A stretch of DNA of 64,000 nucleotides from Elusimicrobiota bacterium. Lineage in GTDB: Bacteria > Elusimicrobiota > Elusimicrobia > JACQPE01. Position 1 is the stretch's first letter. The number at the start of each line of letters is the position of its first letter. Below the pieces are notes generated by a model. That model was given only the letters and a program-made list of their open reading frames with translations. It made no database searches and had not been told where the DNA came from. Location: positions 11,007 to 75,006 of the forward strand of contig JBHPMF010000001.1 of the NCBI GenBank assembly GCA_042563375.1. The letters are read 5' to 3'. The position numbers were made by a program, and so were the translations under genes. Below are positions 4,802 to 56,266 of this stretch, piece by piece.

Positions 4802-4823
4802 AATTTAGTTCCCCCTTTTATTT

Positions 4824-4888
4824 GGATCCCGAATCAAGTTCGGGATGAATATGATACATCTCCGGTAGGGGATGCATTATATTCATTT
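4824..4888 (-). repeat. Copy 1 of a conserved ~65-bp double-hairpin element that begins at the TGA stop of rnc and ends ~20 nt before the ACAD ribosome-binding site
   Basis: Near-identical copies at 49823-49887 and 56267-56330. Two inverted repeats: gaatat(g/a)a..tctcc / ggggA..tatattc and atcccgaa / ttcgggat. Confidence 0.7.
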
Positions 4889-5614
4889 GGCTTGAGCCTG
4901 GCGCAAATAAGCCAGTGCTTCTTTTGCGCCGCTTTGCTCTGCTTCCTTCTTGTTCTTTCCTATGCCTCTTCCTAAAAATTTACCCCTGAATACAACATCA
5001 ACCTGGAATGTCTTCTCGTGTTCCGGTCCCCAGCTTTTGGTTAAGCGATATTCAGGGATGCTTTTGTACTTTTTCTGTATGATCTCCTGAAGGCGGCTTT
5101 TATAATCCCTGAGGATAAACCGTTTCTTCTTGCTTATCCATTTGTCGATTATCAACTCATGGCAGTGTTTGATGCCGCTGTCCAGGTAGATCGCCCCGAT
5201 TATCGCCTCAGCGCAGTCTGCTAAAATGCTCTCTTTTTCCCTGCCGGCATGCTCGAGTTTTCCATTCCCAGAGCCATCGTCAAAGAGAACGAATTCTTCG
5301 AGACTCAGGTATTTGGCCAAGTCAAGAAGACTTCTCTTTGAAACGAGCATAGACTTGAGCTTTGAAAGCCTCCCTTCGTCAGATGTCGGAAACCGTTCAT
5401 ACAAATGAGATGCTATCAGCATGTTAAACACGCTGTCTCCCAGGAATTCAAGCCTTTCATTTGAGAAGGGAAGGCGTTTCCTTTTAGCGTAGGAAGAATG
5501 CAACAGGGCAAGTTCAAGGTGTTTTGAATCCTTGAATGTTATGCCCAGCCTTTCTTCCAGGGCGTCAATGATTTGGGGCTGTACTGCTGATGTATCCACT
5601 TTGTCAGGACACAA
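4883..5614 (-). CDS. rnc: Ribonuclease III
   Basis: ERLEFLGDSV signature of the RNase III catalytic domain plus a C-terminal dsRBD. It lies downstream of acpP. Confidence 0.9.
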   Translation of the reverse strand: MCPDKVDTSAVQPQIIDALEERLGITFKDSKHLELALLHSSYAKRKRLPFSNERLEFLGDSVFNMLIASHLYERFPTSDEGRLSKLKSMLVSKRSLLDLAKYLSLEEFVLFDDGSGNGKLEHAGREKESILADCAEAIIGAIYLDSGIKHCHELIIDKWISKKKRFILRDYKSRLQEIIQKKYKSIPEYRLTKSWGPEHEKTFQVDVVFRGKFLGRGIGKNKKEAEQSGAKEALAYLRQAQAK

Positions 5615-8611: not shown

Positions 8612-9768
8612 AAAAAAAGCCGCTTGTATAACACTTCCTGGTCTTTGACCATCTTGTTTATATCAAATTCCGCGTCTATACTGGATGCCGCGCATTTGGA
8701 CATTTTATCCCGCAGCTGCGTGTCGCTTAAGATATCGCTTACATGCTTGGTGATGCTTTTAAGATCCGCGCAGTCCGATATGAATCCGTTTTGCCCGTGT
8801 ATAACCACTTCCTTGACCCCGTCTGTCGCGTAGGCGCATACGGGGATGCCGGCGCAAAGGGCTTCAAGGACGCTTCTGGGCAAGCCTTCCCAGAGGCTTG
8901 TGAGCACAAAAATATCCGCGGCTTTCAATAGGTCCGCGGTATCTTCTCTCCAGCCTAAATGCCTGGAATTTTCCGGGATATCACCCAGAATGTTGTTTTT
9001 ATCATCCCCGCCAACGAATAAGAACAGGGCGTCGGGAAGCTTGCTCTTGAGAGCTTGCGCTATATTGAAGAAATCTTTGGGATTTTTTTGTTTCTTAAGA
9101 TTTCCGATGGTCACGGCGATCTTGCGCGTGCTGTTGAAACCGAGCCTCTCGCGTATCGTATCCCTGGACTCGGATTTTTTGTATTTTGCTATATCAATTC
9201 CGCTTCGTATCAGTACCTGCTCTGCTTTTCCGGGGATACAATGTTCCTTGGCGATGCGGATATTTTCCTTTGATACATACACAAGCGCGGTTGTGATTTT
9301 GGCTGTGATCTTCTCGATCCATATCAAAAAATTTCTTAAAGGCCGTTTCTGTCTGTCATGAAAGCCGAATCCATGGAAAGTATGGATGATAACAGGAGTG
9401 CCTGCGAAATAGGCCGCCCAGCGTCCCAATATCCCGGCTTTGGAGGAGTGTGTGTGGATGATATGGGGTTTTAAGCGCCTGATAAGCAGGAATATCTCGA
9501 TAAAAGCCAATAAATCAGATAGCGGCCGGATTTCTCTTATCAGATGCTTCAGCCAGAACGTGGGGCAAGTCGATCTGAAATTTTCAGCTTTGCTGTCAAA
9601 ATAACCTCCTGCGCCGGAGGCAAGGACCGGCTCGAATCCTGTCCTGTCAAGATGGGTCACGGTGTGAAGCGTGTTCTGCTGCGCCCCCCCGAATTCAAGT
9701 TTTGTGATCAGGTGAAGAACCTTTATCATATAAAGTGTTAGACGTAAAACGTGAGACGTGAGAAGCAA
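8608..9768 (-). CDS. Glycosyltransferase family 4 (GT-B fold)
   Basis: GT4-like C-terminal domain (EGLPRSVLEALCAGIPV). First gene of the glycan locus. Confidence 0.8.
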   Translation of the reverse strand: MLLTSHVLRLTLYMIKVLHLITKLEFGGAQQNTLHTVTHLDRTGFEPVLASGAGGYFDSKAENFRSTCPTFWLKHLIREIRPLSDLLAFIEIFLLIRRLKPHIIHTHSSKAGILGRWAAYFAGTPVIIHTFHGFGFHDRQKRPLRNFLIWIEKITAKITTALVYVSKENIRIAKEHCIPGKAEQVLIRSGIDIAKYKKSESRDTIRERLGFNSTRKIAVTIGNLKKQKNPKDFFNIAQALKSKLPDALFLFVGGDDKNNILGDIPENSRHLGWREDTADLLKAADIFVLTSLWEGLPRSVLEALCAGIPVCAYATDGVKEVVIHGQNGFISDCADLKSITKHVSDILSDTQLRDKMSKCAASSIDAEFDINKMVKDQEVLYKRLFL

Positions 9769-9890
9769 GAAGCGTGAGACGCAAGACGTGAAACGTGAGA
9801 AGTGTGCCAGAAAACAGAATTCAGAATTTTTTTCTTGCTTTTTATTTTTAACATTTCACGTTTCACATCTCACGTCTTACGTCTCGCGTT
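9737..9890. repeat. Heptamer-periodic long hairpin, family 1 site A (GTGARAC/ACGTGAG units). The right arm overlaps the stop of the FAD oxidoreductase gene.
   Basis: Left arm 9737-9804, loop containing cagaaaacagaattcag, right arm 9852-9890. The stop (tca, rc TGA) at 9870-9872 is inside the arm. Confidence 0.75.
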
Positions 9891-11198
9891 CTTCAAGATC
9901 GTTTCCGCGGCTTGTTTCCCCTCAAGCAGGGCTTCTTCCATAAAGGAATATTTCCAGGCGCCGTACCTGCCTATGGAAAGAATATTATTCGCTTTCAGGT
10001 AGTTCATGACTTTGGGCATGATGAGCTGTCTGGTTTTTGTAAATATCACGTAGCCCGGATCGATCCCACACCACTCTTTGGCGAGAATCCTGTCTGAGGA
10101 CTTAAGAAGTCCGATTGATTCGAGTTTTCTTATTGCGGCACGTTCGTTTTTGTTGAAATCAAAGCGACTTGGACTTCTTGTCGCAAATTCAATGTAGAAC
10201 GAGGTCGCGTTTGTTGGGGCGACTTTTGGGGTGAAATTGCTGGCGACTCCAACGCGATAAAAAGGAAATTTGGGCTCAGGAAAATAAATCCAGTGTTTAT
10301 CGGTTATGTTCCCCCTGTTCACGCCGAGGTTCAGGTTAAAAACAGCGGCATATGGCAAGGTGGACGCGCGCTTAAACCAGGATGGAGTTCTTGAGGTAAA
10401 GCGCTTGGCAAAGAACGGCAGGGGGCTCGTGTTTATCAGCCAGTCGTACTTAAAGCTTGCGTATGGCGTGTGCACTGTGCGCTTTTTCGCATCTATCTCA
10501 AGCGCCTCGTGCCCCGGATAAATCTCAGATTTTTTTAATCTGCCGGCAATCGCGTTTGGCAGAGACTGGATGCCTCCGACTCGCGGATAATAAAATAATG
10601 CGTTATAACCCAGAGGCTTATCCTGGTTTTTTATAGCCCCATAAAGCACTTCTTCCCGAGTCGGGACAGGCACAAAACCTTTTACCCATTCCGCGGTCAT
10701 TTGATTCAGGTCGCAGCAGAAAAGTTTCCTGTTATACGGGTTCATGAAATATTTTGATATTCCCTTTCCGAACACCTCAACGCACCATTTGGCAAAGCTG
10801 GAGTTCGAAGAAGGCTCTTTGAATTTGTCGCGCGCTTTAAGAAAATGAGCCACGCATTGGGCGGCTGTTTTGCCGGGCAGTTCCGAGAGATTAGCCTGGA
10901 ATGGATATTTGCTGAACTTTTTTTGATTGAATATGAAACTTTTGCGCTTATGCCGGCAAAGGTTGTTTTTCAAAAGACCGTTTAATATCCATTTTGTGGT
11001 ATATGGGTTATGCAGATGCAGGAGATGTCCGGAAATGTCAAATGTAAATCCATTATGCAAACTTGAGCTGGCCAATCCGCCAAGGCGCTCGTTTCTTTCA
11101 AGAATAGAGATCTCAACGGGTTTATTTCCGGAAAATTTCTCAATATGGAATGCGCTAGATAGGCCTGCAAGGCCTCCGCCGATAATCACGACCTTCAT
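9870..11198 (-). CDS. FAD-dependent oxidoreductase (amine oxidase / protoporphyrinogen oxidase-like fold)
   Basis: N-terminal GxGxxG dinucleotide-binding motif (VVIIGGGLAGLSSA). Exact function not assignable. Confidence 0.7.
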   Translation of the reverse strand: MKVVIIGGGLAGLSSAFHIEKFSGNKPVEISILERNERLGGLASSSLHNGFTFDISGHLLHLHNPYTTKWILNGLLKNNLCRHKRKSFIFNQKKFSKYPFQANLSELPGKTAAQCVAHFLKARDKFKEPSSNSSFAKWCVEVFGKGISKYFMNPYNRKLFCCDLNQMTAEWVKGFVPVPTREEVLYGAIKNQDKPLGYNALFYYPRVGGIQSLPNAIAGRLKKSEIYPGHEALEIDAKKRTVHTPYASFKYDWLINTSPLPFFAKRFTSRTPSWFKRASTLPYAAVFNLNLGVNRGNITDKHWIYFPEPKFPFYRVGVASNFTPKVAPTNATSFYIEFATRSPSRFDFNKNERAAIRKLESIGLLKSSDRILAKEWCGIDPGYVIFTKTRQLIMPKVMNYLKANNILSIGRYGAWKYSFMEEALLEGKQAAETILKNARRKT

Positions 11199-11339
11199 AA
11201 TTTCTCAAAATAAACGAAATTAAATTTCATTTGTACCATTCATATTCTCATTCGTACACCATTCGCGTTGAGGCTCAATTGAATCAGCGCGAATTAATAC
11301 GAATTATATACGAATACGTACAAATAAAACAGGAAAGTT

Positions 11340-12015
11340 ATTTATCTAACGAGGACGTATGGACTTTGCTCAGAATGGTTCCTTTTTGATGCGGTGAGCA
11401 CTTCGACTTCGCTCAGTACGTTGCACGCTCTATCGAGCCATAGGGGATGTGTTAGTGGACTTGGATCCCGGATATTTACCACATTGCACTTTATATTAAT
11501 CCCGGATTTTGCATTAGCCGTCAAATCGGGAATACAAAGACGGGACTATCTTTTCCGTTTTCTAATGCAACGCAATTAGAAAACACGACTAAAATACACT
11601 GATTGCCAACGGATTTCATTCTTTAATTTTTCAACCTAGAATCCTTCAGTTCACCTGCTATTACCGTCGGGAATGGCGGAACTTTCCTATTGCCCCCTCA
11701 CCCTGCCCTCTCCCTCAAGGGAGAGGGGAAAGAGAAAGTCAGCTGAGAATTCCGGGTTTAAGGAAGAATCCTAATGCAAAATCCGGGTTAATAGCGGATA
11801 TGTGTTAAATTCTGGGATGAATTAAACGCATCTCCGGCCCTTCGACTTTGCTCAGGGTGGTTCCTTCTCGATGTGGTGAGCGGAGTCGAACCATAGGGGA
11901 TGCATCAGCGGATTTGGATCCCAGACATTTACCACATTGCACTTTATATTAATAGCGGATATGTGTTAAATTCTGGGATGAATTAAACGCATCTCCGGTA
12001 GGGGATGCGTTTAAT
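11340..12015. repeat. Tail of the ~800-bp ORF-free intergenic region (11199-12015). It carries a duplicated ~115-bp segment (11355-11500 and 11838-11951), direct 47-bp repeats (11792-11838 and 11951-11998) and a stop-embedded hairpin (11978-12020).
   Basis: Self-similarity read directly. No protein-coding frame of 60 aa or more. Confidence 0.5.
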
Positions 12016-13077
12016 TCATTTTACGCTTTTTAGCTTTGATAAGTATTTGGCAAAAAGCACAAGTTCCGCGATCACGGCCGCATAGATCAGGATCACGATC
12101 ACCTCATTGGAGATCAGCGTGACTATCCAGGAAAGGATTGAAAGCACTATGGCGACTGACGCCATGGCGAAAAGTATTTTTCTGGGCGTGAAGCCGTACG
12201 TTTGAAGGCGATGAGCCACATGGTCCTTGCTTCCCTTTACGGGCGACTTTCCTTGCCGCAGACGGATATAGATCAGGAAGAATGTCTCAAAGATCGGGAT
12301 TGCCAGTATAAAAAGAGGAGCAAACACAGCATAGGGGTTATTACTGGTGTAAGAACAGCCAAGGCTCATTGTGGCCAGAAGATAACCCAGGACAAGCGAT
12401 CCTCCGTCGCCCATGAATATCTTGAATTTGTTCGTCAGGTTGTACGGCAAGAATCCAAGCGAGCCTCCGATCGCAGCGGAAGCCAGGATGTTGACGTATA
12501 TGGCTTCTGAGGGAAAGCCTATGGCAAGGAAAGCCAAAGACGCGATCGCTATCTGTGTTCCCGCGATGCCGTCAATAACGTCGATCAGGTTTATGGCATT
12601 TGTGATCCCGATGATCCATATGAATGACACGAGCATGGCAAAATATTCAGGGCTTACAAAATGGATCCTGACATTAGCCCAAACAAGGATCCCTGCCGCT
12701 ATGCTTTGAATAATGAATTTCCAGGCAATAGGCACTCCGCCTTTTTTTATGTCATCAATGAATCCCAGGCAGAATACTATCATCGCCCCGATCAATATGA
12801 ATCTGAAATTGTGTATGGTTCCCGTGGGGTAGTGTGTGAATAAGCGCACTATGACAAGGGTAATGATGATCGACATGAATATGGCTGTGCCGCCGAGTCT
12901 GGGTATAGGTCTTTTGTGCGATTTCAGCCTTGGGTCAGGCAGGTCAAAGAGGTTAAAACGCTGCGCGATCCGGCTTATCAAAGGGGTCAGGGTGGCTGAA
13001 AGCACGAATGCCAGCAGCATCAATACGATATAAGTCACTGCGCCGCCGCTTGGCTGGGACCAATCGTATGTGTTCAT
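12016..13077 (-). CDS. Polyprenyl-phosphate N-acetylhexosamine-1-phosphate transferase (WecA/MraY-like GT4 initiating transferase)
   Basis: About 10 TM helices with MraY/WecA-family motifs (DDIKKGG, NxxNxxDGIDGL-like NLIDVIDGIAG). Confidence 0.8.
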   Translation of the reverse strand: MNTYDWSQPSGGAVTYIVLMLLAFVLSATLTPLISRIAQRFNLFDLPDPRLKSHKRPIPRLGGTAIFMSIIITLVIVRLFTHYPTGTIHNFRFILIGAMIVFCLGFIDDIKKGGVPIAWKFIIQSIAAGILVWANVRIHFVSPEYFAMLVSFIWIIGITNAINLIDVIDGIAGTQIAIASLAFLAIGFPSEAIYVNILASAAIGGSLGFLPYNLTNKFKIFMGDGGSLVLGYLLATMSLGCSYTSNNPYAVFAPLFILAIPIFETFFLIYIRLRQGKSPVKGSKDHVAHRLQTYGFTPRKILFAMASVAIVLSILSWIVTLISNEVIVILIYAAVIAELVLFAKYLSKLKSVK

Positions 13078-19670: not shown

Positions 19671-20377
19671 CCCACCCCCATGATAAGCGGTAAATACTCC
19701 TTAATAGATTTTATTAATGAGAACCGGCTTTTAGATTGCTTTTTTTCATATTTCAGGAAAAACGGCAGTTCAATGGCGCTTGCGCCTTTTTTGCTTAATT
19801 TGAGCAGCGCTTCAAGCTGTATGGCGAATCCGCAGGATCTGAGCTCCGGCAGGATCTTACATAGGCAGCGCGCCCTGTATAGGCGAAAGCCGCTTGTCAG
19901 GTCTTTAATATTATTGATAGATCCATAGCGCAAGCGGAACAGGGACCTCGCAGTGTTCGCTATGGCTTTTCTTGCGCACGGCACTCCGCTTTCTCCTCCG
20001 CCCGTGATGAATCTTGACGCAATAACAAGGTCAGATGAGGTTTTGTCTGCGGCAGCGAGCATTTCCCGCAAATAACATACAGAGTGCGTATTATCAGCAT
20101 CCATAGTGGCGATAAAATCAGTTTCAAGCGCGTCAGGGCATATGAGCGTCAGGGCGCGTCTTATGCTTGAGCCAAGCCCCAGGTTTTCGGGATTTTTAAT
20201 TATCTTAACAGGGAGGCCTCCGGAGCGGTTCTTGACTATATCCAGGGAATTGTCCGTTGAGCCGTCATCCACAAAAACAACATGCATGTCAAGATCTTTC
20301 TTGATTTGCGCGATATCATCAAGGAGTTGCGGAAGGGCTTTTTCCTCATTAAGAGCGCAGATTATTAGATAAAGCAA
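19667..20377 (-). CDS. Glycosyltransferase family 2 (polyprenyl-phosphate sugar transferase-like)
   Basis: GT-A fold with DDGSTD and DAD(N) motifs. Confidence 0.8.
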   Translation of the reverse strand: MLYLIICALNEEKALPQLLDDIAQIKKDLDMHVVFVDDGSTDNSLDIVKNRSGGLPVKIIKNPENLGLGSSIRRALTLICPDALETDFIATMDADNTHSVCYLREMLAAADKTSSDLVIASRFITGGGESGVPCARKAIANTARSLFRLRYGSINNIKDLTSGFRLYRARCLCKILPELRSCGFAIQLEALLKLSKKGASAIELPFFLKYEKKQSKSRFSLIKSIKEYLPLIMGVG

Positions 20378-20405
20378 GGCAGGTTATAAGGGCTAAATGC
20401 TAAAA

Positions 20406-20490
20406 AGCGTGAAACGCGAGACGTGAAACGTGAGAAGTTAGGCATGGAATTTTCTTTACTTTTCACGTTTCACGTCTCGCGTTTCACGCT
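20406..20490. repeat. Heptamer-periodic hairpin, family 1 site B: a perfect 33-nt inverted repeat with a 19-nt loop. The right arm supplies the last codons (..KRET*) of the upstream GT2.
   Basis: agcgtgaaacgcgagacgtgaaacgtgagaagt / acttttcacgtttcacgtctcgcgtttcacgct. The stop is at 20470-20472. Confidence 0.8.
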
Positions 20491-21438
20491 GCTGGCATTA
20501 TGCGTTATTGTGGATTCTATCTGATATGGTTTTTGGTTGGTGATAATGACATTGTTGCGCATCATAATATCTGCCAGGGGGCCCAGGAACAGGAATAATA
20601 TCGCGCCGGCGAAAAAGAAGAATCCAAAGAAAAACAGCGGAGACAGCCATATTCCGCCCAGGAATATCCTCCGGATCACAACTGCGCAATGCATAAGGAG
20701 TCCCAAGCTTGCGAAAAGGAATGCTGCTCCTCCGAAAAGATGCATGGGTCTGGTAAAGTATGAAAGATAGAACTTAAGCAGGAATGCATCCAGAAGCACT
20801 TTCACTATGCGTGAGAATAAGCCGTATTTTGATCTCCCCCAGGTGCGCGGATTATGCGACACGCTGATCTCGGCTATGCTGTGCCCCCTGAGGGCCAGGT
20901 ATGCGGGGAGCAGGCGGTGCATTTCCCCTAGTATCTCAAGGCCTTCGAGCGCTTTTCGTGAATATGCCCTTAGCGTGCACCCGTGATCATGCAGGCTGAT
21001 CCCCATTATTCCTGAAATAAACCTGTTTGCGACCCATGAAGGCAATACCCTGATGAAGCTGTCATGGCGGTCTTTGCGCCATCCGCAGACAACGTCGTAG
21101 CCCTCGTCAAGCTTGGACAAGAGAGCCGGTATGTCCTTGGGATTGTTCTGTCCGTCGCCGTCAAGGGTGACGACGGTATCTCCGGAGCTTTCCTCGATGC
21201 CGCAGGCCAATGCTGCTGATTGCCCGAAATTCTTTTTGAACTTTATGATCCTGGCTGAAAGCCCGGTGTTTTTAAGAGTTTCGCTGATATTGTCAACGCT
21301 GTTATCCGTGGAGCCGTCATCCACAAAGACAATTTCCAGGCTTTTCTTTATGGCCCCTGAAACTTCCCAAAGAGCCTTGGCCAGGTCCTTTACATTTCCG
21401 CCTTCATTGTACACGGGGATTATTATTGAGATGTCCAT
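20470..21438 (-). CDS. Glycosyltransferase family 2 with C-terminal TM anchor (DPM1/GtrB-like)
   Basis: IIIPVYNEGGN..VDDGSTD GT2 motifs plus two C-terminal TM helices. Confidence 0.8.
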   Translation of the reverse strand: MDISIIIPVYNEGGNVKDLAKALWEVSGAIKKSLEIVFVDDGSTDNSVDNISETLKNTGLSARIIKFKKNFGQSAALACGIEESSGDTVVTLDGDGQNNPKDIPALLSKLDEGYDVVCGWRKDRHDSFIRVLPSWVANRFISGIMGISLHDHGCTLRAYSRKALEGLEILGEMHRLLPAYLALRGHSIAEISVSHNPRTWGRSKYGLFSRIVKVLLDAFLLKFYLSYFTRPMHLFGGAAFLFASLGLLMHCAVVIRRIFLGGIWLSPLFFFGFFFFAGAILFLFLGPLADIMMRNNVIITNQKPYQIESTITHNASSVKRET

Positions 21439-26565: not shown

Positions 26566-26600
26566 GACCGTATCACACCGCTTAACGTATTATGTCCGCT

Positions 26601-26634
26601 AACAGAAGCACAGGAGCACAGGAGCACAGGAGCA
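26601..26634. repeat. Direct 8-mer array (gcacagga x3.5) in the pilM-pilN intercistronic gap
   Basis: agcacaggagcacaggagcacaggagcacaa, read directly. It shares its unit with the inverted repeat at 29388-29474. Confidence 0.8.
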
Positions 26635-26641
26635 CAACTCG

Positions 26642-27790
26642 TCATTTCTGCCAGTCTCCGTATTTTCTCAGAGCAAGACCGCAAGCCACAGAGAATGCGG
26701 GTCCGGCCTGGATCAGGTTTTGATAAGCAGGAGGTATTTTGAGCAGCGAAAGCGGATTGAGGATCTCAACAGGCAGCTTGAATTCTTTCGAGAGATAAGC
26801 GTCCAGGTTCTTAAGCAGGGCTCCGCCTCCGCTTAAATAGATTTTTGTTATTTCACGGTCCATTCCATGAGTGAGATAAAAATCAATGGATTTATGCACC
26901 TCCGCCAGAAGCTCATTAGCTACGGTTATCAAGCATTGAGACGCCTGGGTATCAGCCGGTTCCCCTGAGGAAAGGGTGCCTTCCTTATCATCTTCTCCCG
27001 TGTTGATCTTGCTGTCCCTTTTCATTTTTTCGCTTGCCTGTGCGTCCTGGCCCAGACTGCTTTCGATGGCGTTTGTGAATGCGTTGCCTCCGATATTAAC
27101 GTCCCTGACAACGCGCGGCGTCCCGTCTTCCACGATTACCAGGTTCGTTATAGTAGAGCCGATATTCACCATAAGCGTTGTTTGCTGGGATTGTTGATCG
27201 GAAACAAGCGATAAAAGATTGGTCACGGCAAAAGCATCAACATCCACGATAATGGGCCGCAGTCCCGCCTGCGCAAGTATTGATAATCGTCCGTCGATCA
27301 GATCTTTTTTCGCAGCCACTAAAACAGTGTCATATTTCTTCTGATTCTCCTCGACTATCTCCTTGATCACATAATAATCAAGATTAACATCGCGGATATC
27401 GTAAGGTATAAACGGTTCAGCCTCGAATGGAAGGGTGCGTTCCAATTCCTGGTGTCCTATAGCCGGCAGTTTTGCTTCGCGCACGATCACGGAACTTCCG
27501 GATATGCCTATGGCGATCGGAGATTTTTTAAGTTTTGCGTCGCTGAGCATCTTCTTTATCTCGCCTATCATGTAGATCTGCATGGCTTCTTCATCACCGG
27601 AGATGCTGCGCATATCAAGTTCCTTATATGCCGCAAAGTCAGCCGCGTATTGATTGCCCTCAGATTTGATCCTGATCGATTTTATCGCGCTCGATCCTAT
27701 ATCAACAGCAAGAATAGGTTTTTTGAAGCTGATCGCGTCCTTTACCTTTGTAATAATAGGTTTGAGTTTTTCAGTGATATTAGCCTTCAT
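26642..27790 (-). CDS. pilM: Type IV pilus assembly ATPase-fold protein PilM
   Basis: Actin-like/FtsA-fold protein. It is the first gene of the pilMNOPQ block. Confidence 0.85.
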   Translation of the reverse strand: MKANITEKLKPIITKVKDAISFKKPILAVDIGSSAIKSIRIKSEGNQYAADFAAYKELDMRSISGDEEAMQIYMIGEIKKMLSDAKLKKSPIAIGISGSSVIVREAKLPAIGHQELERTLPFEAEPFIPYDIRDVNLDYYVIKEIVEENQKKYDTVLVAAKKDLIDGRLSILAQAGLRPIIVDVDAFAVTNLLSLVSDQQSQQTTLMVNIGSTITNLVIVEDGTPRVVRDVNIGGNAFTNAIESSLGQDAQASEKMKRDSKINTGEDDKEGTLSSGEPADTQASQCLITVANELLAEVHKSIDFYLTHGMDREITKIYLSGGGALLKNLDAYLSKEFKLPVEILNPLSLLKIPPAYQNLIQAGPAFSVACGLALRKYGDWQK

Positions 27791-29387: not shown

Positions 29388-29474
29388 AACGTGCTCCCGT
29401 GCTCCAGTGCTGCTGTTTTTGCAAAGGAAATTCTTCTGTTAACAGGAGAACCGGAGCACAGGAGCACTGTAGCA
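29388..29474. promoter_or_regulatory. Inverted repeat built from GTGCTCC / GGAGCAC 8-mers in the divergent pilA-pilB promoter region
   Basis: aacgtgctcccgtgctccagtgctgctg ...27-nt T-rich loop... caggagaaccggagcacaggagcactgtagcac. Confidence 0.6.
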
Positions 29475-29544
29475 CAATTCACTTTGCTTATTGACAAAGC
29501 TCAAAACAGGGGCTAAATAGATAAATGAGGGAGAGTATGTAAAT

Positions 29545-36666: not shown

Positions 36667-36830
<164 letters not shown>

Positions 36831-39270: not shown

Positions 39271-40993
39271 TTTTCATTAAACGGGTCAGGCGCGATCCTA
39301 AGTCCGTTGTTTGCGCGCAGGCCGTTTCCTCGACGATCTCGCCTTTTTCCATCACTATAATACGGTTGCAAAAACTCAGGGTCTTTAGGCGGTGGCTTAT
39401 GACAAGTGCGGTCCTGTTTTGCAGCAATTCCTTGATGGCAGCGAGAACGAATTCTTCGGACTCAGGGTCCAGATTGCTCGTTGCTTCGTCAAGGATCAGG
39501 ATCTTCGGGTTTTTCAGTATTGCCCGTGCTATTGCTATGCGCTGCTTTTGGCCGGCGGACAGTCTTGCTCCACGCTCACCAACGAGTGTTTTAAAGCCAT
39601 CAGGCAGGTATTCGATAAACTCAAGAGCATAGGCTTGCGAGGCTGCGGATTTTATCTCCTCGAATGTTGATCCGGGCTTGCCCATCATAATGTTTTCTTC
39701 TATTGAGCTGTCAAAAAGAAATGCATCCTGAGATACAGCGCCGAGCAATGTCCTCAATGACGGGATAGAGAGGTCTTTGATATCCGTGTTGTCTATCGTG
39801 ATTCTTCCTTGAGCAGGGTCGTAAAATCTGCCAAGCATCATTGCCATTGTTGTTTTTCCGCTGCCGCTTGGTCCGGCAAGCCCCAGGATCTCGCCTTTGG
39901 GTATTTTCAGATCCATGCTTTTAAGTATTGCATGTCCGGGTTCGTACGAGAAGCTTACCTGTTCGAACGCGATCTGCTTTTCAATGGTTGCGATCGTCTT
40001 TGGCAGTGCAGCGTTGATGATACTCGGCTTTAAATCCAATATCTCGAGCACGCGCTTCCAGCTGGTAAGACCCATCTGGATGATCGGATTGACCTGGGCA
40101 AGGTGCTTCATCGGCATATACGCGGCAAACGATGCGCTCAAAAACGCCATGAATGAGCCGGGGCTCCATGCGTCATTTATCACCTGAAGCCCTCCGGCGA
40201 ATAAGATGAGCGTGATGATCAGAGAGCTTAAGAATTCATTAAGGGACGGAGCCAGGGCTGTTATCTTCTGGAATTTAAGCAAAGCTTTGTAGTGCGCGGT
40301 ATTCTGTTCGTCAAAATGTTTAAGCCACTTTTTTTCATACAGGAAGACTTTGAGCATTGTGAGTCCGTTAAGACCTTCCGAGATTATCGAGTATAGGACT
40401 GCGACGAGTTCCTGTATCCTTCTTGTTATTTTGCGCAGCATCATGGTGAATAGTATGAAAAGGCCCGCAAAAACAGGCATTGTAATGATTATGGCTGTGG
40501 CAAAACGCCAATTAAGATAGAAGATCAGCATCATCAGGAACGTGACCGTAAGTCCATCTCTTATGATATAGAGCGGCGCGTTCGCCACCATATTGGATAT
40601 GGCCATAACGTCATTTGTGGATCTTGAAAGGGCTTCTGAGCTTTTTGCTCTTGTATGGTATGAGTGGTCCAAGGAAAGCAGTTTTTCAAGGATCTGAGCC
40701 CTGATCGTTTTAGCTGCAGCATGACCGATTTTCGCCATATGGTAATTAAGAAGGTATGAGAAAAGGCTTTTAGCGAAGAATATGATGGGTATTATAAGGG
40801 AGAGGGTTTTAAGCATCTCTATGTCTTTCTCGATGAAGATCTGGTCTATGACCGGCTTGACAAGGCCCACGGAGCCTGATGAGAGAGCTGCCACAAAGCA
40901 CATGGACACGGCTGCGACAGAGAAATCCTTAGCGTGTGATGTTAAGTACGGAAGAAGCCGCTTCCAGGATGGCCGGTGTGTATTATCCGGCAT
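39263..40993 (-). CDS. ABC transporter, fused permease/ATPase (MsbA-like lipid A / lipid exporter)
   Basis: Six-TM N-terminal domain. Walker A GPSGSGKTT, ABC signature LSAGQKQR, Walker B ILILDEATS. Adjacent to the lpx cluster. Confidence 0.8.
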   Translation of the reverse strand: MPDNTHRPSWKRLLPYLTSHAKDFSVAAVSMCFVAALSSGSVGLVKPVIDQIFIEKDIEMLKTLSLIIPIIFFAKSLFSYLLNYHMAKIGHAAAKTIRAQILEKLLSLDHSYHTRAKSSEALSRSTNDVMAISNMVANAPLYIIRDGLTVTFLMMLIFYLNWRFATAIIITMPVFAGLFILFTMMLRKITRRIQELVAVLYSIISEGLNGLTMLKVFLYEKKWLKHFDEQNTAHYKALLKFQKITALAPSLNEFLSSLIITLILFAGGLQVINDAWSPGSFMAFLSASFAAYMPMKHLAQVNPIIQMGLTSWKRVLEILDLKPSIINAALPKTIATIEKQIAFEQVSFSYEPGHAILKSMDLKIPKGEILGLAGPSGSGKTTMAMMLGRFYDPAQGRITIDNTDIKDLSIPSLRTLLGAVSQDAFLFDSSIEENIMMGKPGSTFEEIKSAASQAYALEFIEYLPDGFKTLVGERGARLSAGQKQRIAIARAILKNPKILILDEATSNLDPESEEFVLAAIKELLQNRTALVISHRLKTLSFCNRIIVMEKGEIVEETACAQTTDLGSRLTRLMKND

Positions 40994-41003
40994 AAATATC
41001 TCG

Positions 41004-41175
41004 CAAGACGTTAGACGTTAGACGTGAGAAGCAGGAAGCGTGAAATGTGAGATGTGAAACGTGAGAAGTGCAAAGCGTGAAACGTGAGACGTGAAACATG
41101 AGAAGTTCAGCAGAAAATAAGATTCTTATTTTATCTTTTAACATTTTACGTCTCACGTCTTGCGTCTCACGTCTT
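41004..41175. repeat. Family 1 heptamer hairpin site C. The left arm (about 104 nt) is internally expanded to three times the length of the right arm (35 nt). The right arm contains the lpxB stop.
   Basis: Left arm gcaagacgttagacgttagacgtgagaagcaggaagcgtgaaatgtgagatgtgaaacgtgagaagtgcaaagcgtgaaacgtgagacgtgaaacatgagaagt. Right arm acattttacgtctcacgtcttgcgtctcacgtctt. Confidence 0.75.
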
Positions 41176-42330
41176 CAATATTTTCTCAATTTGCTCACTT
41201 GCGTATTCAATCGGGTTCCTGTTTTCATGAATCAAGCTGTTGCTTAATTTCAGCAATTCCTTGCGCATGGCCTCCGCTGAATCTTTATTTTGCAAGGTTT
41301 TTAAGGCTGATGCGGATACTTCATCAATAATATTATCAAGCGGGCCCTTATGGGGCCATACGAATTCATCGATTATTTTCCTGTTTGCGAGGATATTGGG
41401 CATTGAAGTGTATCTGATATGAAGGGCTCTCTTGAGAACATGATAGAGCCAGGCGGGTTTTACAGTGTAGATGCTCAACATTGGTACGCCGAGGATCAGA
41501 TTCTCAAGAGTAGCTGTGCCGCTTGTAGTGAGCGCCAGATCAAGCAGAGCCCGTTTTTCATGGTCCGATCCGAATGCTTCGCTTATCCCCATCTTCAAGA
41601 GTTCGCCTTGCTCGGGGTATAATTGCGGCGGTATTCCATTGACCTTGAAAATAATAGCGCTGGCATTCGGGATTTTATTTTTGATCTTGCGCCATGCCCC
41701 AAGAAGTATGGGAACATTCTGGACTATCTCCCTTGGCCTGCTCCCGGGTAAGATCCCCACTAAAGGGGATTTGAGATTTGAGATTTGAGATTTGAGATTA
41801 ACGTATTTTCTGAGCATCTGGGCCATGGGATGGCCCACGAAACATGCTTTAATCCCATGCTCGTTGTAGAAGGGCTCTTCGAATGGGAACAAGCACAGCA
41901 CAAGGTCTGTGAGCTTCCTTATCTTATGGATCCTGTTTTTGCGCGTTGCCCAGACTTGCGGGCTTATGTAATAAACCACTTTGGCTCCGCTTTTTTTCGC
42001 AAGAGAAGCTATCCTCACGTTAAAACCATAATAGTCCACGGGCATGTGCAGATCGATGGGGTCCGCCGCGATTTTTCGTTTTACGGCCCTATATGCCTTA
42101 AGGAGAGGAAAAGCTTTAAGCAGCGGATCCGTCCAGCCCATGATCCCCATGTTTGAGAGATCGAAAATAAAACTGTCCGCTATTGCTGCGAGATTTTTCC
42201 CGCCTAAAGCTGACACGCGAATATCAGGGAAACGTTTTTTTAAATCTTTAATAACAAGAGACGCCAGGAGATCGCTGGAAGGTTCTCCTGCTGTAACAAG
42301 GATATGTTTGCTAAGTTTTTGTGTTGGCAA
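41167..42330 (-). CDS. lpxB: Lipid-A-disaccharide synthase
   Basis: GT19 family (ILVTAGEPSSD N-terminus, LPGSR motif). Confidence 0.85.
   Translation of the reverse strand: MPTQKLSKHILVTAGEPSSDLLASLVIKDLKKRFPDIRVSALGGKNLAAIADSFIFDLSNMGIMGWTDPLLKAFPLLKAYRAVKRKIAADPIDLHMPVDYYGFNVRIASLAKKSGAKVVYYISPQVWATRKNRIHKIRKLTDLVLCLFPFEEPFYNEHGIKACFVGHPMAQMLRKYVNLKSQISNLKSPLVGILPGSRPREIVQNVPILLGAWRKIKNKIPNASAIIFKVNGIPPQLYPEQGELLKMGISEAFGSDHEKRALLDLALTTSGTATLENLILGVPMLSIYTVKPAWLYHVLKRALHIRYTSMPNILANRKIIDEFVWPHKGPLDNIIDEVSASALKTLQNKDSAEAMRKELLKLSNSLIHENRNPIEYASEQIEKILKT
41768..41799. repeat. (GATTTGA) x4.5 tandem heptamer inside the lpxB coding sequence, encoding ..NLKSQISNLKS.. in a loop before the LPGSR motif
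   Basis: gatttgagatttgagatttgagatttgagatt, read directly. Confidence 0.85.
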
Positions 42331-46479: not shown

Positions 46480-47235
<756 letters not shown>

Positions 47236-49787: not shown

Positions 49788-49822
49788 TGTGCTTCAGGAA
49801 GACAGGGGTTATAGATCCGGAT

Positions 49823-49887
49823 GGATCCCGAAACAAGTTCGGGATGAATATAATACGTCTCCAATAGGGGACGCATTATATTCATTT
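49823..49887 (-). repeat. Copy 2 of the TGA-embedded double-hairpin element (clpC stop to bamA start)
   Basis: ggatcccgaaacaagttcgggatgaatataatacgtctccaataggggacgcattatattcattt. Confidence 0.7.
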
Positions 49888-52428
49888 TTCTTTCTTTGAT
49901 GTTCCAATCTTGCCTGGGAATGGATTCGGGCTGAAAATAAGTTTCTTTTCTTTCTCGTCAATGTCCACGTGTATGGTGTCGTTTCGCTTGAATTTCTTGG
50001 ACAGTATCTCCTCGACAAGCGGATCTTCAAGATTCTTCTGGATCGTGCGCAGAAGGGGCCTTGCCCCGTAGTTCGGATCGAATCCGGTTTGCACAAGAAA
50101 GTCTTTTGCTTCCGGGGTAAGGTCGAACTGGAAATTCTGCTCCTTGAGCTTTGCAATGGATTTCTTAAGCGCGAGTTCCAGGATCAGCCTCATATGATCC
50201 TGATTAAGAGGGTGGAAGACGATGAGTTCATCGACCCTGTTGAGAAACTCCGGATTAAATACCCTTTTGACTTCTTCCATCACGATTTCTTTCATTTTCT
50301 GGTAATCTTTTGATTCGCGGACTTCTTCATCAGAGATGAAACCCAATGATTTGCCTTTTGAGATGAGTCTTGCCCCGACATTGGAAGTCATGATCACGAC
50401 TGTATTTTTAAAACTTACTTTTCTGCCGAGACTGTCTGTCAGAGAGCCTTCATCCATGATCTGGAGCAGGATATTGAAAACATCCGGATGCGCTTTTTCG
50501 ATCTCATCAAGGAGCACAACGGAGTATGGTTTTCTTTTTACAGCTTCGCTGAGCTGTCCGCCTTCTTCATATCCGACATATCCCGGAGGAGCTCCTATTA
50601 ACCGTGAGACATTGAATTTTTCCATGTATTCTGACATGTCCAGCCTTACGATCTGTTCTTCATTGTTGAACATGTATTCAGCCAAGGTTCTTGCGAGCTC
50701 TGTTTTGCCGACCCCGGTCGGCCCAAGAAACACAAAGCTTCCGATCGGCCGCTTTGGATCCTTCAGACCGGTTCTGCTCCTTCTTATGGCTTGTGAGACC
50801 GCTTTGATCGCCTCATCTTGGCCTATCATGCGATTGTGAAGCTCTTCTTCCATGTGCAGGAGCTTTTCTTCCTCACTTTCAGTGAGTTTAACAACGGGTA
50901 TTCCGGTCCACTTGGAGACAATGAGCGATATGTCATCAGATGTAATGACAGGGGTCTCGCTTTCCCTGGTTTGCTTCCATTTCTTCTTCATGTCCTCAAT
51001 GGTTTTCCTGAGTTCCCGCTCCTTATCCCTCAACTTGGCTGCTTTTTCGTAGTCCTGGGTGGCTATCGCCTCATTTTTAGAGTTAACGATACCTGCAAGT
51101 TCTTCTTCCTTTTCCTTAATAGAGAGCGGAGGCTGGTTTGAGGAGAGCTTTGCTCTTGATCCTGCTTCATCAAGCAGATCTATGGCTTTGTCAGGAAGGA
51201 ACCTGTCTGAGATGTATCTGTCGGAAAGATTCGCCGCTGACCGGATAGCATCATCATCATATTTGATCTTATGATGTTGTTCGTATTTTTCCTTGATGCC
51301 GTTTAAAATATCAATTGTCTGGTCCACTGTGGGCGGATCGACCATCACAGGTTGAAAACGTCTTTCAAGAGCTGCGTCGTGTTCTATGTGTTTCCTGAAT
51401 TCATCTATGGTTGTTGCGCCTATGCATTGCAGTTCCCCGCGGGCTAACGGCGGCTTTAAAATATTAGCGGCGTCTATCGCGCCTTCAGCTGCGCCCGCTC
51501 CGATCACAGTGTGGAGCTCGTCAATGAACAGGATAATGGCGTTTTTCGCTTTTCTTATTTCCTCGATTATGTTTTTAAGTCTTTGTTCGAATTCACCGCG
51601 GTACTTTGTGCCTGCCACGACTGCAGCCAGGTCCATCGTTACAACGCGTTTATTGGCCAGAAGTTCAGGAGCATCGCCTGTTGCGATCTTTTGGGCCAGG
51701 GCTTCGACTACAGCTGTTTTCCCCACCCCGGGTTCGCCTATCAGAACAGGATTGTTTTTTGTTCTTCTGGAGAGGATCTGTATCACCCTCTCTATCTCAT
51801 TCTGTCTGTTAACAACAGGATCGAGTTTTTGTTCTCTTGCCAGTTGTGTTAGATCCCTTCCAAATTCATCCAGGGTTGGGGTTTTTGATTTGCCCTTTGC
51901 TGCTGGTCCGCCTGAGGGGCCTCCCTGCTGGCGGCCTGTTTCTTTGGCTTCGGATTCACCAAGGAGGTTTAAGACCTCTTCTCTGACGACTTCAAGGCGG
52001 ATACCGAGGTTTTCAAGGACTCTGGCAGCGACTCCTTCTTCTTCCCTGATAAGGCCAAGAAGGATATGTTCTGTCCCAACATAGGTGTGCCCCATTTTCT
52101 GGGCTTCTTCAACAGCGAGTTCCAGGACTTTTTTAGCGCGTGGAGTGAATGGGATTTCACCCAGCTGCATGATATTATCCCCGGCTCCCACGATCTTCTC
52201 TATCTCAGCCCTGACCCGTTTTAAGTCAACTCCGAGATTAGCCAGTACTTGGGCTGCAACGCCTTCATTTAAGGCAACAAGGCCTAAGAGTACGTGCTCA
52301 GTGCCCACATAATCGTGATTAAGGCGTTTTGCCTCTTCCTGAGCGATTAAAATCGCCCTTTGGGCTCTTTCTGAAAAACGGTTATAGAACATTGCCATGG
52401 TGCATAATCCTCCGAGTCCATTATACAA
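49882..52428 (-). CDS. clpC: AAA+ chaperone ClpC (Clp_N repeats, two NBDs, short M-domain with UVR-like motif)
   Basis: Two Clp_N repeats. Walker A GEPGVGKT and GPTGVGKT. The M-domain carries the DYEKAAKLRDKE UVR-type motif and is too short for ClpB. Confidence 0.85.
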   Translation of the reverse strand: MYNGLGGLCTMAMFYNRFSERAQRAILIAQEEAKRLNHDYVGTEHVLLGLVALNEGVAAQVLANLGVDLKRVRAEIEKIVGAGDNIMQLGEIPFTPRAKKVLELAVEEAQKMGHTYVGTEHILLGLIREEEGVAARVLENLGIRLEVVREEVLNLLGESEAKETGRQQGGPSGGPAAKGKSKTPTLDEFGRDLTQLAREQKLDPVVNRQNEIERVIQILSRRTKNNPVLIGEPGVGKTAVVEALAQKIATGDAPELLANKRVVTMDLAAVVAGTKYRGEFEQRLKNIIEEIRKAKNAIILFIDELHTVIGAGAAEGAIDAANILKPPLARGELQCIGATTIDEFRKHIEHDAALERRFQPVMVDPPTVDQTIDILNGIKEKYEQHHKIKYDDDAIRSAANLSDRYISDRFLPDKAIDLLDEAGSRAKLSSNQPPLSIKEKEEELAGIVNSKNEAIATQDYEKAAKLRDKERELRKTIEDMKKKWKQTRESETPVITSDDISLIVSKWTGIPVVKLTESEEEKLLHMEEELHNRMIGQDEAIKAVSQAIRRSRTGLKDPKRPIGSFVFLGPTGVGKTELARTLAEYMFNNEEQIVRLDMSEYMEKFNVSRLIGAPPGYVGYEEGGQLSEAVKRKPYSVVLLDEIEKAHPDVFNILLQIMDEGSLTDSLGRKVSFKNTVVIMTSNVGARLISKGKSLGFISDEEVRESKDYQKMKEIVMEEVKRVFNPEFLNRVDELIVFHPLNQDHMRLILELALKKSIAKLKEQNFQFDLTPEAKDFLVQTGFDPNYGARPLLRTIQKNLEDPLVEEILSKKFKRNDTIHVDIDEKEKKLIFSPNPFPGKIGTSKKEK

Positions 52429-54561: not shown

Positions 54562-54566
54562 TTTAT

Positions 54567-54673
54567 ACGTAAGACGTGAAGCGTAAGACGTGAGAAGTTC
54601 GGCAGAAAACAGAATTCAGGATTTTTTCTTTTTTTGCTTTTAACATCTTGCGTCTTACGTCTCACGTTTTACG
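54567..54673. repeat. Family 1 heptamer hairpin site D. Its loop shares cagaaaacagaattcag with site A. The right arm supplies the ..VKRET* end of McsA.
   Basis: acgtaagacgtgaagcgtaagacgtgagaagt / acatcttgcgtcttacgtctcacgttttacg. Stop TAA at 54655-54657. Confidence 0.75.
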
Positions 54674-55020
54674 ATCTCCTTGATCTTGTCGCGAAGGATG
54701 GCGGCTTTTTCGTATGCTTCCTTTTTTATGGCTTCCGAGAGGTCTGATTTGAGTTTTTTAAGATCCTCTTTTGGAGCTGTTTTTTTAGCTCTTGGATCCG
54801 CTATCTTGCTTGGAGAATATGAGATCCCTGTATGTTTTGAGCTGCCGTGTATTTTTTTCACTACCTCCTGCATAAGCTTATGAAAAGTGTCATAACACTG
54901 TGCGCATCCCACAAAACCGGTTTCCTTAAAAGCAGTGTATGTTGTAGCGCAGTTGGGGCATTTGAGCACCGGGGGCTTGCTTGCTGGCCTGTGATAGGTT
55001 CCGGAGGCCGCTCCCGGCAT
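54655..55020 (-). CDS. mcsA: McsA-like activator of protein arginine kinase (zinc finger plus UVR motif)
   Basis: CPNC...CAQC zinc ribbon and C-terminal EAYEKAAILRDKIKEI UVR-type motif. The frame stays open upstream to the ilvE stop and includes another CPDC. Confidence 0.6.
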   Translation of the reverse strand: MPGAASGTYHRPASKPPVLKCPNCATTYTAFKETGFVGCAQCYDTFHKLMQEVVKKIHGSSKHTGISYSPSKIADPRAKKTAPKEDLKKLKSDLSEAIKKEAYEKAAILRDKIKEIVKRET

Positions 55021-55209
55021 AAGATTGCCGATGATATCAGGAAGATTGAATCCGGGCGTTTCAGAAGGGTCGAATGCAAAGCCTTTGACAAGGCCCTGCT
55101 CGCTGGCGCAGTCCGGGCAAAGGTTTAGATTCAGGATTTCCGAGCCTGACTGGCCCTGAAAATGTATGGTGGCTTTATTCTTGCCGCAGGATTGACAGAT
55201 CGCTATTGT

Positions 55210-56250: not shown

Positions 56251-56266
56251 GCTTTATGCAGGCTCT

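Follow-up and report, generated by a model that had tools for sequence, protein, structure and literature searches.

We found that the 817-nt spacer between two genes of a polysaccharide operon in an Elusimicrobiota bacterium is probably (at roughly 70%) lineage-specific non-coding repeat DNA, a REP/BIME-like or MIRU-like mosaic with a nested MITE. The spacer occupies positions 11199-12015 of the window, the 64-kb stretch of DNA that was analysed, and separates a GT4/WecA-like gene from an amine-oxidase gene.

According to this reading, repeats would have accumulated at a stop/start junction that was formerly tight or overlapping. A REP-like double hairpin of the family that we call family 2 would have come to lie at the GT4 stop, with the stop codon within its first stem. 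A derivative of this element would then have given rise, by tandem amplification, to an array of two units with a period of 161 nt, the second hairpin being expanded in each unit, and the internal unit would have come to carry a short ubiquitous hairpin module, hpX, between a left arm and a right-arm look-alike. A 287-bp MITE would have transposed into the TTAAT of unit 1 after the unit tails had become identical, and an AT-rich heptamer palindrome adjoining the downstream start codon would close the spacer. At most, the hairpins would work in the manner of REPs, as attenuators or as barriers at mRNA 3' ends, with no dedicated RNA gene among them.

The operon and its spacer

The GT4/WecA-like gene (12016-13077) and the FAD amine-oxidase-like gene (9870-11198) both lie on the minus strand. 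The ATG start of the latter is at 11196-11198, and its N-terminus aligns with those of its relatives. The genes belong to a conserved polysaccharide operon with the order GFO/MocA oxidoreductase, heparinase-like, GT4/WecA-like, amine oxidase and GT1. The order GT4, amine oxidase, GT1 is kept in 5/5 related Elusimicrobiota contigs (52-57% protein identity), and four of the five also keep the upstream heparinase-like gene. The spacing from GT4 to oxidase in these contigs is -4, -4, -4, +3 and +1 nt. As the two genes share 4 nt or are separated by only 1-3 nt in all five relatives, the whole 817 nt is lineage-specific. Translational coupling of the GT4 and amine-oxidase genes has probably been lost, and expression of the downstream amine-oxidase and GT1 genes would now require either a new promoter or read-through past very stable hairpins. 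A coupled surface-polysaccharide gene pair would thus have been pulled 817 nt apart by selfish repeats, and the spacer could alter the expression of a capsule or LPS-type glycan.

The first-pass annotation had described the region as free of ORFs, and our searches agree with this. The longest ORFs in the spacer are 61, 60, 52 and 45 aa; none of these 45-61-aa ORFs matched Pfam, and the 60-aa ORF, the sole one searched for homologues, had none among 5.8 billion proteins. ARAGORN found no tRNA or tmRNA. A T-loop resemblance on the minus strand (GGTTCGACTCC) was rejected, as it has no matching stem and is not retained in unit 1. The GC-skew profile was uninformative on the replication strand, and a literature search by sequence string returned primer noise only. 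Just upstream of the amine-oxidase start lies a long AT-rich palindrome of TACGAAT-type heptamers (11225..11329, minus strand), whose fold energy is -48.7 kcal/mol for the minus strand, compared with -37.1 for the plus strand.

Family-2 hairpins and the tandem array

At the other end of the spacer, the TGA of the GT4 gene (12016-12018) falls within the right arm of a terminal hairpin, ATGAATTAAACGCATCTCC-GGTA-GGGGATGCGTTTAATTCAT (11978-12019), with 19-nt arms and a 4-nt loop. A perfect hairpin immediately following the TGA had been reported here. The hairpin is real, but "perfect" was slightly generous, as its arms are 95% complementary with one T.G pair on the plus strand, and the TGA lies inside the right arm. 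The hairpin is part of a complete family-2 element (11954..12023, plus strand), which consists of a degenerate second hairpin and a first hairpin of 17-19 bp (left arm, GGTA loop, right arm).

Family 2 is a double-hairpin repeat with four copies in the 64-kb window (4823-4893, 11956-12026, 49822-49892 and 56266-56336). All four lie between same-strand genes, abut or overlap the AAA-TGA end of the upstream gene, and hold the stop codon inside the first hairpin. The gene pairs at the other three sites are functionally unrelated. In the first hairpin, alignment of the four copies revealed four compensatory pairs and a pairing of 97%, and wobble pairs are concentrated on the plus strand. The second conserved hairpin is GGATCCCGAA..TTCGGGAT, and the loop/stem boundary reads GGTAGG, AATAGG or GGCAGG, with no invariant GTAG. 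The first-pass annotation had proposed the terminal hairpin as a diverged family-2 member and a covariance search as one check; the covariance model of the family scored this copy at 83 bits, confirming the assignment, and also detected a half copy at 11793-11869/11912. Solely the plus strand of the terminal copy was terminator-like (20 pairs and a T-run), and no intrinsic terminator-like site was called on the minus (sense) strand at any of the four copies. In shuffle tests of the hairpin arm, the segment tail and the segment head, the observed matches were reproduced in 0/100 shuffles. A scan of genome contigs with the family-2 core gave four matches, from other phyla.

Upstream of the terminal hairpin we identified a perfect 50-nt direct repeat (11788-11837 and 11949-11998, spacing 161). 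A repeat of 47 bp had been noted before; the repeat exists at the greater length of 50 nt, and the string then quoted for it is 45 nt, starting at 11793 and 11954. The same left half of the hairpin, placed about 160 bp upstream at 11821-11838, is indeed present, at 11819-11837 and with a spacing of 161. We read the 50-nt repeat as best explained by the junction of a 161-nt tandem duplication. Unit 2 (11838..11998, plus strand, 161 nt) consists of hpX, the right-arm look-alike, an expanded second hairpin and a left arm. The expanded hairpin (11918..11979, plus strand) has arms ATCCCAGACATTTAC and GTTAAATTCTGGGAT and a 32-nt loop. Unit 1, also on the plus strand, comprises a head (11355..11500), with a 29-nt extra piece and a degraded hpX, which ends at the left TTAAT, and a tail (11793..11837), with the left arm at 11819-11837. 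The degraded hpX is as expected of decaying repeat DNA.

The segment at 11838-11951 had been described as a diverged duplicate of 11355-11500, and the alignment bears this out for 11838-11948, with 69/89 aligned bases identical (78%) and an indel of 29-30 nt; the ungapped blocks of the unit heads are 87% identical. The unit tails, in comparison, are identical at 72/72 nt (11474-11500 plus 11793-11837 versus unit 2) once the MITE is removed. This shift from 78% to 100% identity within the unit is sharp, with P about 1e-8 under uniform divergence. Simple duplication leaves it unexplained, and it counts against our explanation. We infer that slippage or unequal recombination produced a tandem duplication and that the 72-nt tail subsequently underwent gene conversion.

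The suggestion that the 115-bp segment is multi-copy, in the manner of a MITE, was not upheld: the window, IMG/VR, JGI metagenomes, plasmids and protein libraries yielded no further copy of either the segment or the X-Y unit. A metagenome scan with the 19-base X pattern gave just two chance matches, inside coding sequences, and plasmid BLAST returned nothing for X1 and hpX alone for unit 2. A family-2-type element has also been doubled in tandem, independently, in a Saccharibacteria MAG.

The hpX hairpin of unit 2 (TTCGACTTTGCTCA / TGAGCGGAGTCGAA; 11841..11890, plus strand) has two U.G pairs on the plus strand and is positioned between the left arm, ending in CCGG, and TAGGGGATGC. The left arm (11819-11837) is followed by about 56 nt and then by the right-arm look-alike TAGGGGATGC, and this placement of hpX between the two accounts for the appearance of a split hairpin. 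The look-alike had been assigned to the end of the segment, which is incorrect: ccataggggatg lies in mid-segment, at 11891-11902.

The same arrangement could in principle reflect the insertion of a mobile unit of about 161 nt (11838-11998) into the hairpin loop, with duplication of a target of about 50 nt, or the insertion of the 56-nt hpX alone into the loop of an upstream family-2 hairpin. We regard this as improbable. It is favoured by the sequence at 11834-11902, where exactly hpX parts the CCGG and TAGGGGATGC that are contiguous in the terminal hairpin. The covariance model interprets 11793-11912 as a family-2 element carrying a large insert (E = 0.037). Furthermore, hpX relatives with the same boundaries occur in a Pseudanabaena (cyanobacterial) plasmid, and the 20-mer of the hpX left arm is widespread, being present in 48 IMG/VR contigs. 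However, a 50-nt target duplication far exceeds what any transposase makes, and a plain tandem duplication yields the same sequence. The look-alike agrees with the true right arm across just some 12 nt, and its pairing with the left arm extends to 8 bp; in unit 1 the modules follow in the same order with no left arm preceding them. We also rejected nesting between inverted flanks as a general property of the hpX 20-mer, with 6/47 cases against about 5% in controls. The earlier description of a hairpin split by an insert is thus fair for 11819-11902 and fails for the 50-nt repeat, which is too long as a target duplication.

The region folds strongly, at -89.4 kcal/mol on the plus strand versus -74.8 on the minus strand (z = -7.9 and -6.9, respectively). 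This folding would also be expected of a structured RNA, either an sRNA or a long 5' leader or attenuator of the amine-oxidase and GT1 genes. Mutually exclusive pairings are present, and in the form of a switch the right arm would pair either with left arm 1, thereby enclosing unit 2, or with left arm 2. The covariation in the first hairpin across the four family-2 copies and the preference of wobble pairs for one strand point in the same direction. On the other hand, a strong fold is the automatic outcome of duplicated palindromes, and the strand that folds better is the antisense strand of all the neighbouring genes. The whole spacer is missing from the five relatives that retain the operon, and unit 1 is degraded, including its hpX, and split by the MITE. 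Rfam 15, searched with the spacer and another family-2 copy at E <= 10, gave best scores of at most 20 bits (E >= 0.1), which are miRNA/snoRNA noise, and the whole window had no match at the gathering score. Two promoter-like sites were found where 2.7 were expected, which is not above chance. Altogether, the small ncRNA gene or larger structured RNA that had been suggested for this region seems quite unlikely. The better fold of the plus (antisense) strand and the wobble polarity nevertheless hint at a strand-specific constraint, which a pure "junk" reading does not predict.

The nested MITE-like element

Unit 1 is interrupted by a 287-bp element without an ORF (11501..11787). It is bounded by perfect 17-bp TIRs (CCCGGATTTTGCATTAG at 11501-11517 and, as reverse complement, at 11771-11787; 17/17), which are the only two TIR matches in the window at up to 3 mismatches, with 0.25 expected by chance. 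The TIRs are flanked by a TTAAT target-site duplication (TSD; left 11496-11500, right 11788-11792). In unit 2 the corresponding empty site is uninterrupted (TATATTAATAGCGG; TATATTAAT-AGCGG), and its intact TTAAT (11949-11953) sits in the 32-nt loop of the expanded second hairpin. In-silico excision of the element restores the 72/72 identity with unit 2. Folded as DNA, the element is closed by its TIRs (z = -5.8). The longest stretch without a stop in it has 66 codons, and the translation of this stretch had 0 matches against 1.84 billion representative proteins.

With TIRs at its ends, a TSD with an empty site, and a small size without a transposase gene, 11501-11787 has the sequence features of a putative MITE. 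The scar of a small non-autonomous element that the first-pass annotation had suspected is therefore present; it is not the 115-bp segment but this 287-bp element, which had been missed. The 5-bp TSD and the CC-initiated ends recall IS1380-type elements, which we take to be a putative likeness. The element has one copy in the 64-kb window, an IMG/VR scan with the MITE end found none, and in plasmid BLAST only its BoxC part matched. This lack of a second copy in the searched data counts against our explanation.

Perfect 17-bp inverted repeats, spaced 253 bp apart and upstream of surface-polysaccharide genes, also resemble those of invertible promoters, of which fimS and the Bacteroides PS-locus invertons are examples. 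The 253-bp segment would then be an invertible, phase-variable promoter switch for the downstream polysaccharide genes. We consider this very unlikely: the 5-bp direct repeat on either side and the precise empty site of unit 2 mark transposition, no promoter-like site was found inside the segment, and its interior is the BoxC motif plus filler. Just as unlikely is an assembly artefact in which strain variants were joined through the shared 50-nt repeat, producing the tandem arrangement or the MITE-bearing copy. The source is indeed a MAG contig, and short-k assemblies can be misled by perfect repeats of 50-72 nt. However, the junction of the unit 1 tail with the unit 2 head (CTCCGG followed by CCCTTCGAC) has no long k-mer in common with any alternative path, the heads differ by 22% and an indel, which excludes their collapse or expansion from one copy, and the Saccharibacteria MAG shows a tandem doubling of independent origin.

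Inside the MITE we found a BoxC / PIT / TM intrastrand-triplex motif (11695..11727, minus strand), which reads CCCTCTCCC-TTGA-GGGAGAGGG-CA-GGGTGAGGG on the minus strand. The motif is defined by three blocks with short linkers (Holder et al. 2015, PMC4666352, Table 1), and the three-block sequence found here is essentially identical to E. coli TM no. 2 (PMC4666352). It matches 3928/5426 E. coli genomes at 88-95% identity and 319 plasmid records. The BoxC/TM motif has been associated with rearranged loci (PMC4666352). Unlike the known cases, the motif here lies within a TIR-bounded element of an Elusimicrobiota genome, adding Elusimicrobiota to the hosts of BoxC-type triplex motifs.

Relation to known repeats and to hairpin modules in other phyla

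The REP-like mosaic and the putative MITE belong to known kinds of element, and the spacer is probably ordinary repeat DNA with no hidden RNA gene. REP/BIME clusters of Enterobacteria and Pseudomonas act as IS landing sites and mRNA 3'-end stabilisers (PMC3184786). Like them, the spacer has short imperfect palindromes at gene 3' ends inside an operon, mosaic clusters of several motifs and tandem amplification (PMC3184786). Unlike REP/BIME, family 2 is unrelated in sequence, has AU-rich stems and no conserved GTAG, and carries an in-stem stop codon (4/4 copies) together with an attached second hairpin. REPINs, doublets of REPs moved by RAYTs (PMC3116915), are likewise palindromic non-coding units that spread in a genome with compensatory maintenance of their stems, but their doublet-of-REP architecture was not seen for family 2, whose abundance here is 4 copies per 64 kb.

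The spacer shares with MIRUs repeat units at an operon junction that overlap codons of the flanking genes, tandem copies in variable number and absence from the corresponding loci in relatives (PMC3184786). MIRUs measure 40-100 bp, are rich in G+C and contain small ORFs, whereas the unit here is 161 nt, is built of hairpins and embeds only the upstream stop codon. Like the MITEs Correia/NEMIS, Nezha, RUP and IMU, the 287-bp element has TIRs, a TSD and an empty/filled-site pair and is without a transposase gene, in keeping with the classical definition (PMC3184786). It differs from them in being known from one copy in the data searched and in carrying a BoxC triplex motif. The locus would be a clean natural case of layered repeat growth, from hairpin element to tandem array to MITE, with an internal empty-site control.

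Hairpin modules of 20-65 nt from this locus turn up again, at 80-100% identity, in Bacteroidota, Saccharibacteria, Cyanobacteria, Enterobacteria and viral contigs. This recurrence across phyla is not explained by any curated family and is the most interesting loose end. We can imagine, as a speculation that we think rather unlikely, that the locus offers a glimpse of a pan-bacterial toolkit, for the most part undescribed, of hairpin modules of about 20-65 nt. The GGATCCCGAA..TTCGGGATGAAT hairpin, the CCCTTCGACTTYGCTCAGGG module and BoxC would be its members here. Such modules would pass from phylum to phylum, insert at gene ends and supply the stop codon there, nest within one another's loops and amplify in tandem. 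If so, family 2 would be a stop-codon-donating mobile element that pries apart overlapping stop/start junctions, and the polarity of the wobble pairs would mark the strand on which a putative mobilising machinery or RNA acts.

The spacer and its counterpart in related contigs

The Elusimicrobiota MAG from which the region derives carries, on the minus strand, a GT4/WecA-like (GT4/MraY-family) gene at 12016-13077 with its TGA at 12016-12018, and a FAD amine-oxidase-like gene at 9870-11198. The two are separated by a spacer of 817 nt. The nearest relatives of the GT4/MraY-family protein, its own record aside, show 52-57% identity. We found that the gene order GT4, amine oxidase, GT1 is kept in five related contigs, four of which also have a heparinase-like gene upstream. 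In 3 of the 5 contigs, the GT4 stop shares 4 nt (ATGA or GTGA) with the oxidase start; in the other two, the genes are 1-3 nt apart. The oxidase N-terminus can be aligned with its relatives from the first residue. Because the two genes overlap or adjoin in all five contigs, the comparison indicates that all 817 nt of the spacer are an addition in this lineage.

The sense strand reads ATGAA at both spacer ends (12015-12019 and 11194-11198), where the relatives have the ATGA/GTGA stop/start overlap. This would fit an insertion into an ATGA overlap, and with two bases past the start codon it is not significant alone. At the junction of the ClpB/C-like gene and BamA, the element start TGAATA likewise recurs at the downstream GTGAATA start. 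The longest ORFs in the spacer encode 45-61 aa without a Pfam match, and the 60-aa ORF, the sole one searched, has no homologue. A palindrome of AT-rich TACGAAT-type heptamers occupies 11225-11329, between the first of two tandem units (unit 1) and the oxidase start.

We consider it probable (about 70%) that selfish or neutral repeat DNA has accumulated, specifically in this lineage, at an operon junction where the genes once overlapped. The components would be a hairpin element that was amplified into an array of two units, a MITE nested in that array and carrying a BoxC motif, and the AT-rich palindrome. As a class, such an accumulation is known biology, and the hairpin element can be likened to REP/BIME or MIRU.

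Stop-codon hairpins and the two-unit array

The first-pass annotation had placed a hairpin at the end of the WecA-like gene and a second left half further upstream. Both features exist, though their positions were about 2 nt out. The hairpin is ATGAATTAAACGCATCTCC-GGTA-GGGGATGCGTTTAATTCAT at 11978-12019, with the stop codon inside the right arm and one T.G pair, and the left arm was found again at 11819-11837. The hairpin belongs to family 2, an element of ~66 nt with four copies in the window (4823-4893, 11956-12026, 49822-49892, 56266-56336). When the element is read on the gene strand, ATGAAT opens the 17-19-bp stem of the first hairpin, and this stem contains the AAA-TGA of the upstream gene; the second hairpin, ATCCCGAAC-TTGA-TTCGGGAT, follows directly. 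The first hairpin is 97% paired over the four copies, with 4 positions altered on both sides, and the upstream genes are mutually unrelated (GT4, RNase III, ClpB/C-like ATPase, ABC ATPase). A covariance model trained on all four copies gave 83 bits for 11956-12026. Beyond these four it recognised only a half copy in the window, extending from 11793 to 11869 or 11912, and ~52 kb of sequence from two Elusimicrobiota relatives yielded no copy. The hairpins lack a following U-run on the sense strand, where the terminator scan called no terminator-like site; only the + strand of the 11956-12026 copy passed it. Thus, the family-2 element behaves like a REP-type extragenic palindrome and not a canonical terminator.

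The direct repeat described earlier as 47 bp is present, but the string quoted for it has 45 nt, and the maximal perfect repeat is 50 nt (11788-11837 = 11949-11998, spacing 161). Segment 11838-11948 is, as had been proposed, a diverged copy of 11355-11500 (69/89 bases identical, plus a 29-30-nt indel). In shuffling controls, none of the hairpin, repeat or segment matches arose by chance. With the MITE removed, the order is unit 1 (11355-11500 + 11793-11837), unit 2 (11838-11998), then TA and the right arm. Each unit contains the short hairpin hpX (TTCGACTTTGCTCA ... TGAGCGGAGTCGAA), continues with a right-arm look-alike (TAGGGGATGCAT...) and an expanded second hairpin (GGATCCCAGA, 46 nt, TTCTGGGAT) with the TTAAT target in its loop, and is closed by the left arm. 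The string ccataggggatg, taken previously for the segment end, lies mid-segment at 11891-11902.

The description of a split hairpin holds, since 11819-11902 reads left arm, hpX and right-arm look-alike in order. A plain tandem duplication of the 161-nt unit yields the identical sequence, and the 50-nt flanking repeat is far too long for a transposase-made target duplication. True insertion of a mobile unit into the hairpin loop is unlikely.

In unit 1, hpX is degraded, and 29 additional nt include a third TTCGACTTCGCTCAG motif. The unit heads are 78% identical vs 72/72 for the tails (P ~1e-8 under uniform divergence), so one must assume that the tails were made alike by subsequent gene conversion or partial re-duplication; the MITE would have arrived afterwards. 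A weak sigma-70-like site was seen on the minus strand at 11941-11969 (TTAACA, 17 nt, TAAAGT), and the stretch between its hexamers includes the MITE target TTAAT; the hexamers of its unit 1 counterpart (11488-11493 and 11803-11808) are parted by the MITE. The number of sigma-70-like sites in the region is not above chance.

The nested MITE-like element and its BoxC motif

Perfect 17-bp inverted repeats (CCCGGATTTTGCATTAG) at 11501-11517 and 11771-11787, with no other match in the window at up to 3 mismatches, delimit a 287-bp segment with TTAAT on either side. Unit 2 provides an internal empty site, in which ...TATATTAAT runs uninterrupted into AGCGG..., and deletion of the element with one TTAAT makes the last 72 nt identical between the units. 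MITEs are defined by terminal inverted repeats, target duplication, the lack of a transposase, and an empty/filled pair (PMC3184786), and the 287-bp element bears this classical signature.

The MITE interior contains CCCTCTCCC-TTGA-GGGAGAGGG-CA-GGGTGAGGG (minus strand, 11695-11727), which was matched in 3928 of 5426 complete E. coli genomes and in 319 plasmid records. The sequence is the BoxC/PIT/TM intrastrand-triplex motif described by Holder et al. 2015 (PMC4666352) and is nearly identical to its E. coli counterparts. The example taken from E. coli is an inverted pair in the wcaJ-cpsG spacer (L012 1510-1620), also in a polysaccharide (colanic acid) cluster. In a related Elusimicrobiota contig, the heparinase-like gene contains a 21-nt exact match to the C-rich half of BoxC (L010 6929-6949). 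The MITE terminus with the last two bases of the target duplication (11499-11507) reads ATCCCGGAT, a 9-mer also present 33 nt upstream (11466-11474) as the second-hairpin arm of unit 1, and resembles the family consensus ATCCCGAA. This coincidence could be chance or kinship of the MITE ends with the hairpin family.

RNA structure, dispersed modules and other repeats

The region folds very strongly on both strands (-89.4 kcal/mol, z = -7.9 on +; -74.8 kcal/mol, z = -6.9 on -). Such folding is expected from duplicated palindromes. The region matched no Rfam family and contains no tRNA or tmRNA, promoter-like sites are not in excess of chance, one unit has decayed and is interrupted by the MITE, and the relatives lack the spacer. 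A structured RNA or leader, including the ncRNA gene suggested earlier, is hence quite improbable, and an inverton or an assembly artefact is slightly more improbable still. What remains odd is the strand polarity of wobble pairs: the first hairpin has 6 wobble pairs and 2 mismatches on the + strand, which is antisense to every gene nearby, vs 2 and 6 on the sense strand. Two U.G pairs occur in hpX when the + strand is folded.

It had been asked whether the 115-bp segment is multi-copy. No second copy of the entire segment turned up in the window, IMG/VR, plasmids or protein libraries, and JGI metagenomes gave only two chance matches, both in coding sequence; of the source genome only the window was covered, so this negative is weak. 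The short modules of the segment are nevertheless widespread. MAGs of Prolixibacteraceae, Sunxiuqinia, Allomuricauda and Saccharibacteria contain exact matches to the second hairpin's 26-nt core, GGATCCCGAANCAAGTTCGGGATGAAT (L001 6930-6956, L002 7848-7915, L003 3790-3861, L004 6130-6156), and stem variants there show compensatory changes. The Saccharibacteria contig (L002) has the full two-hairpin architecture (59 bits), which overlaps an L7/L12 gene at its stop codon and is present as a tandem pair with a period of 62 nt. Three hpX-like modules were found in Pseudanabaena galeata plasmid NZ_CP112876.1 (L013 1373-1428, 1505-1560, 1817-1890), and the 20-mer CCCTTCGACTTYGCTCAGGG in 48 IMG/VR contigs (L018-L065), mostly without the right arm. 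This cross-phylum conservation of short modules, with the habit of embedding stop codons, is the part that might repay study. The plasmid modules lie antisense within a CDS annotated as a helicase and show the wobble polarity seen in the window. In L004, short tandem repeats of the CTGCGACTGAAAA type come after the core.

A second repeat family consists of 130-200-nt palindromes, with ACGTGAG/ACGTGAA heptamer arrays opposite TTCACGT arrays, each filling a same-strand gene junction (9726-9900, 20375-20510, 40992-41186, 54568-54681, 56996-57122). The oxidase-to-GT1 junction measures -4 to +9 nt in four relatives vs ~100 nt here. For four of the five palindromes, the + strand gives a clearly more stable fold (e.g. 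-54.8 vs -38.5 kcal/mol), the strands being about equal at 9715-9905. Such a palindrome also stands at the beginning of a second long ORF-poor spacer between same-strand genes (54562-55209, 648 nt). Short intergenic tandem arrays of AATGATG heptamers and GCACAGGA octamers were located at 36670-36760, 47148-47200, 26595-26648 and 29435-29480.
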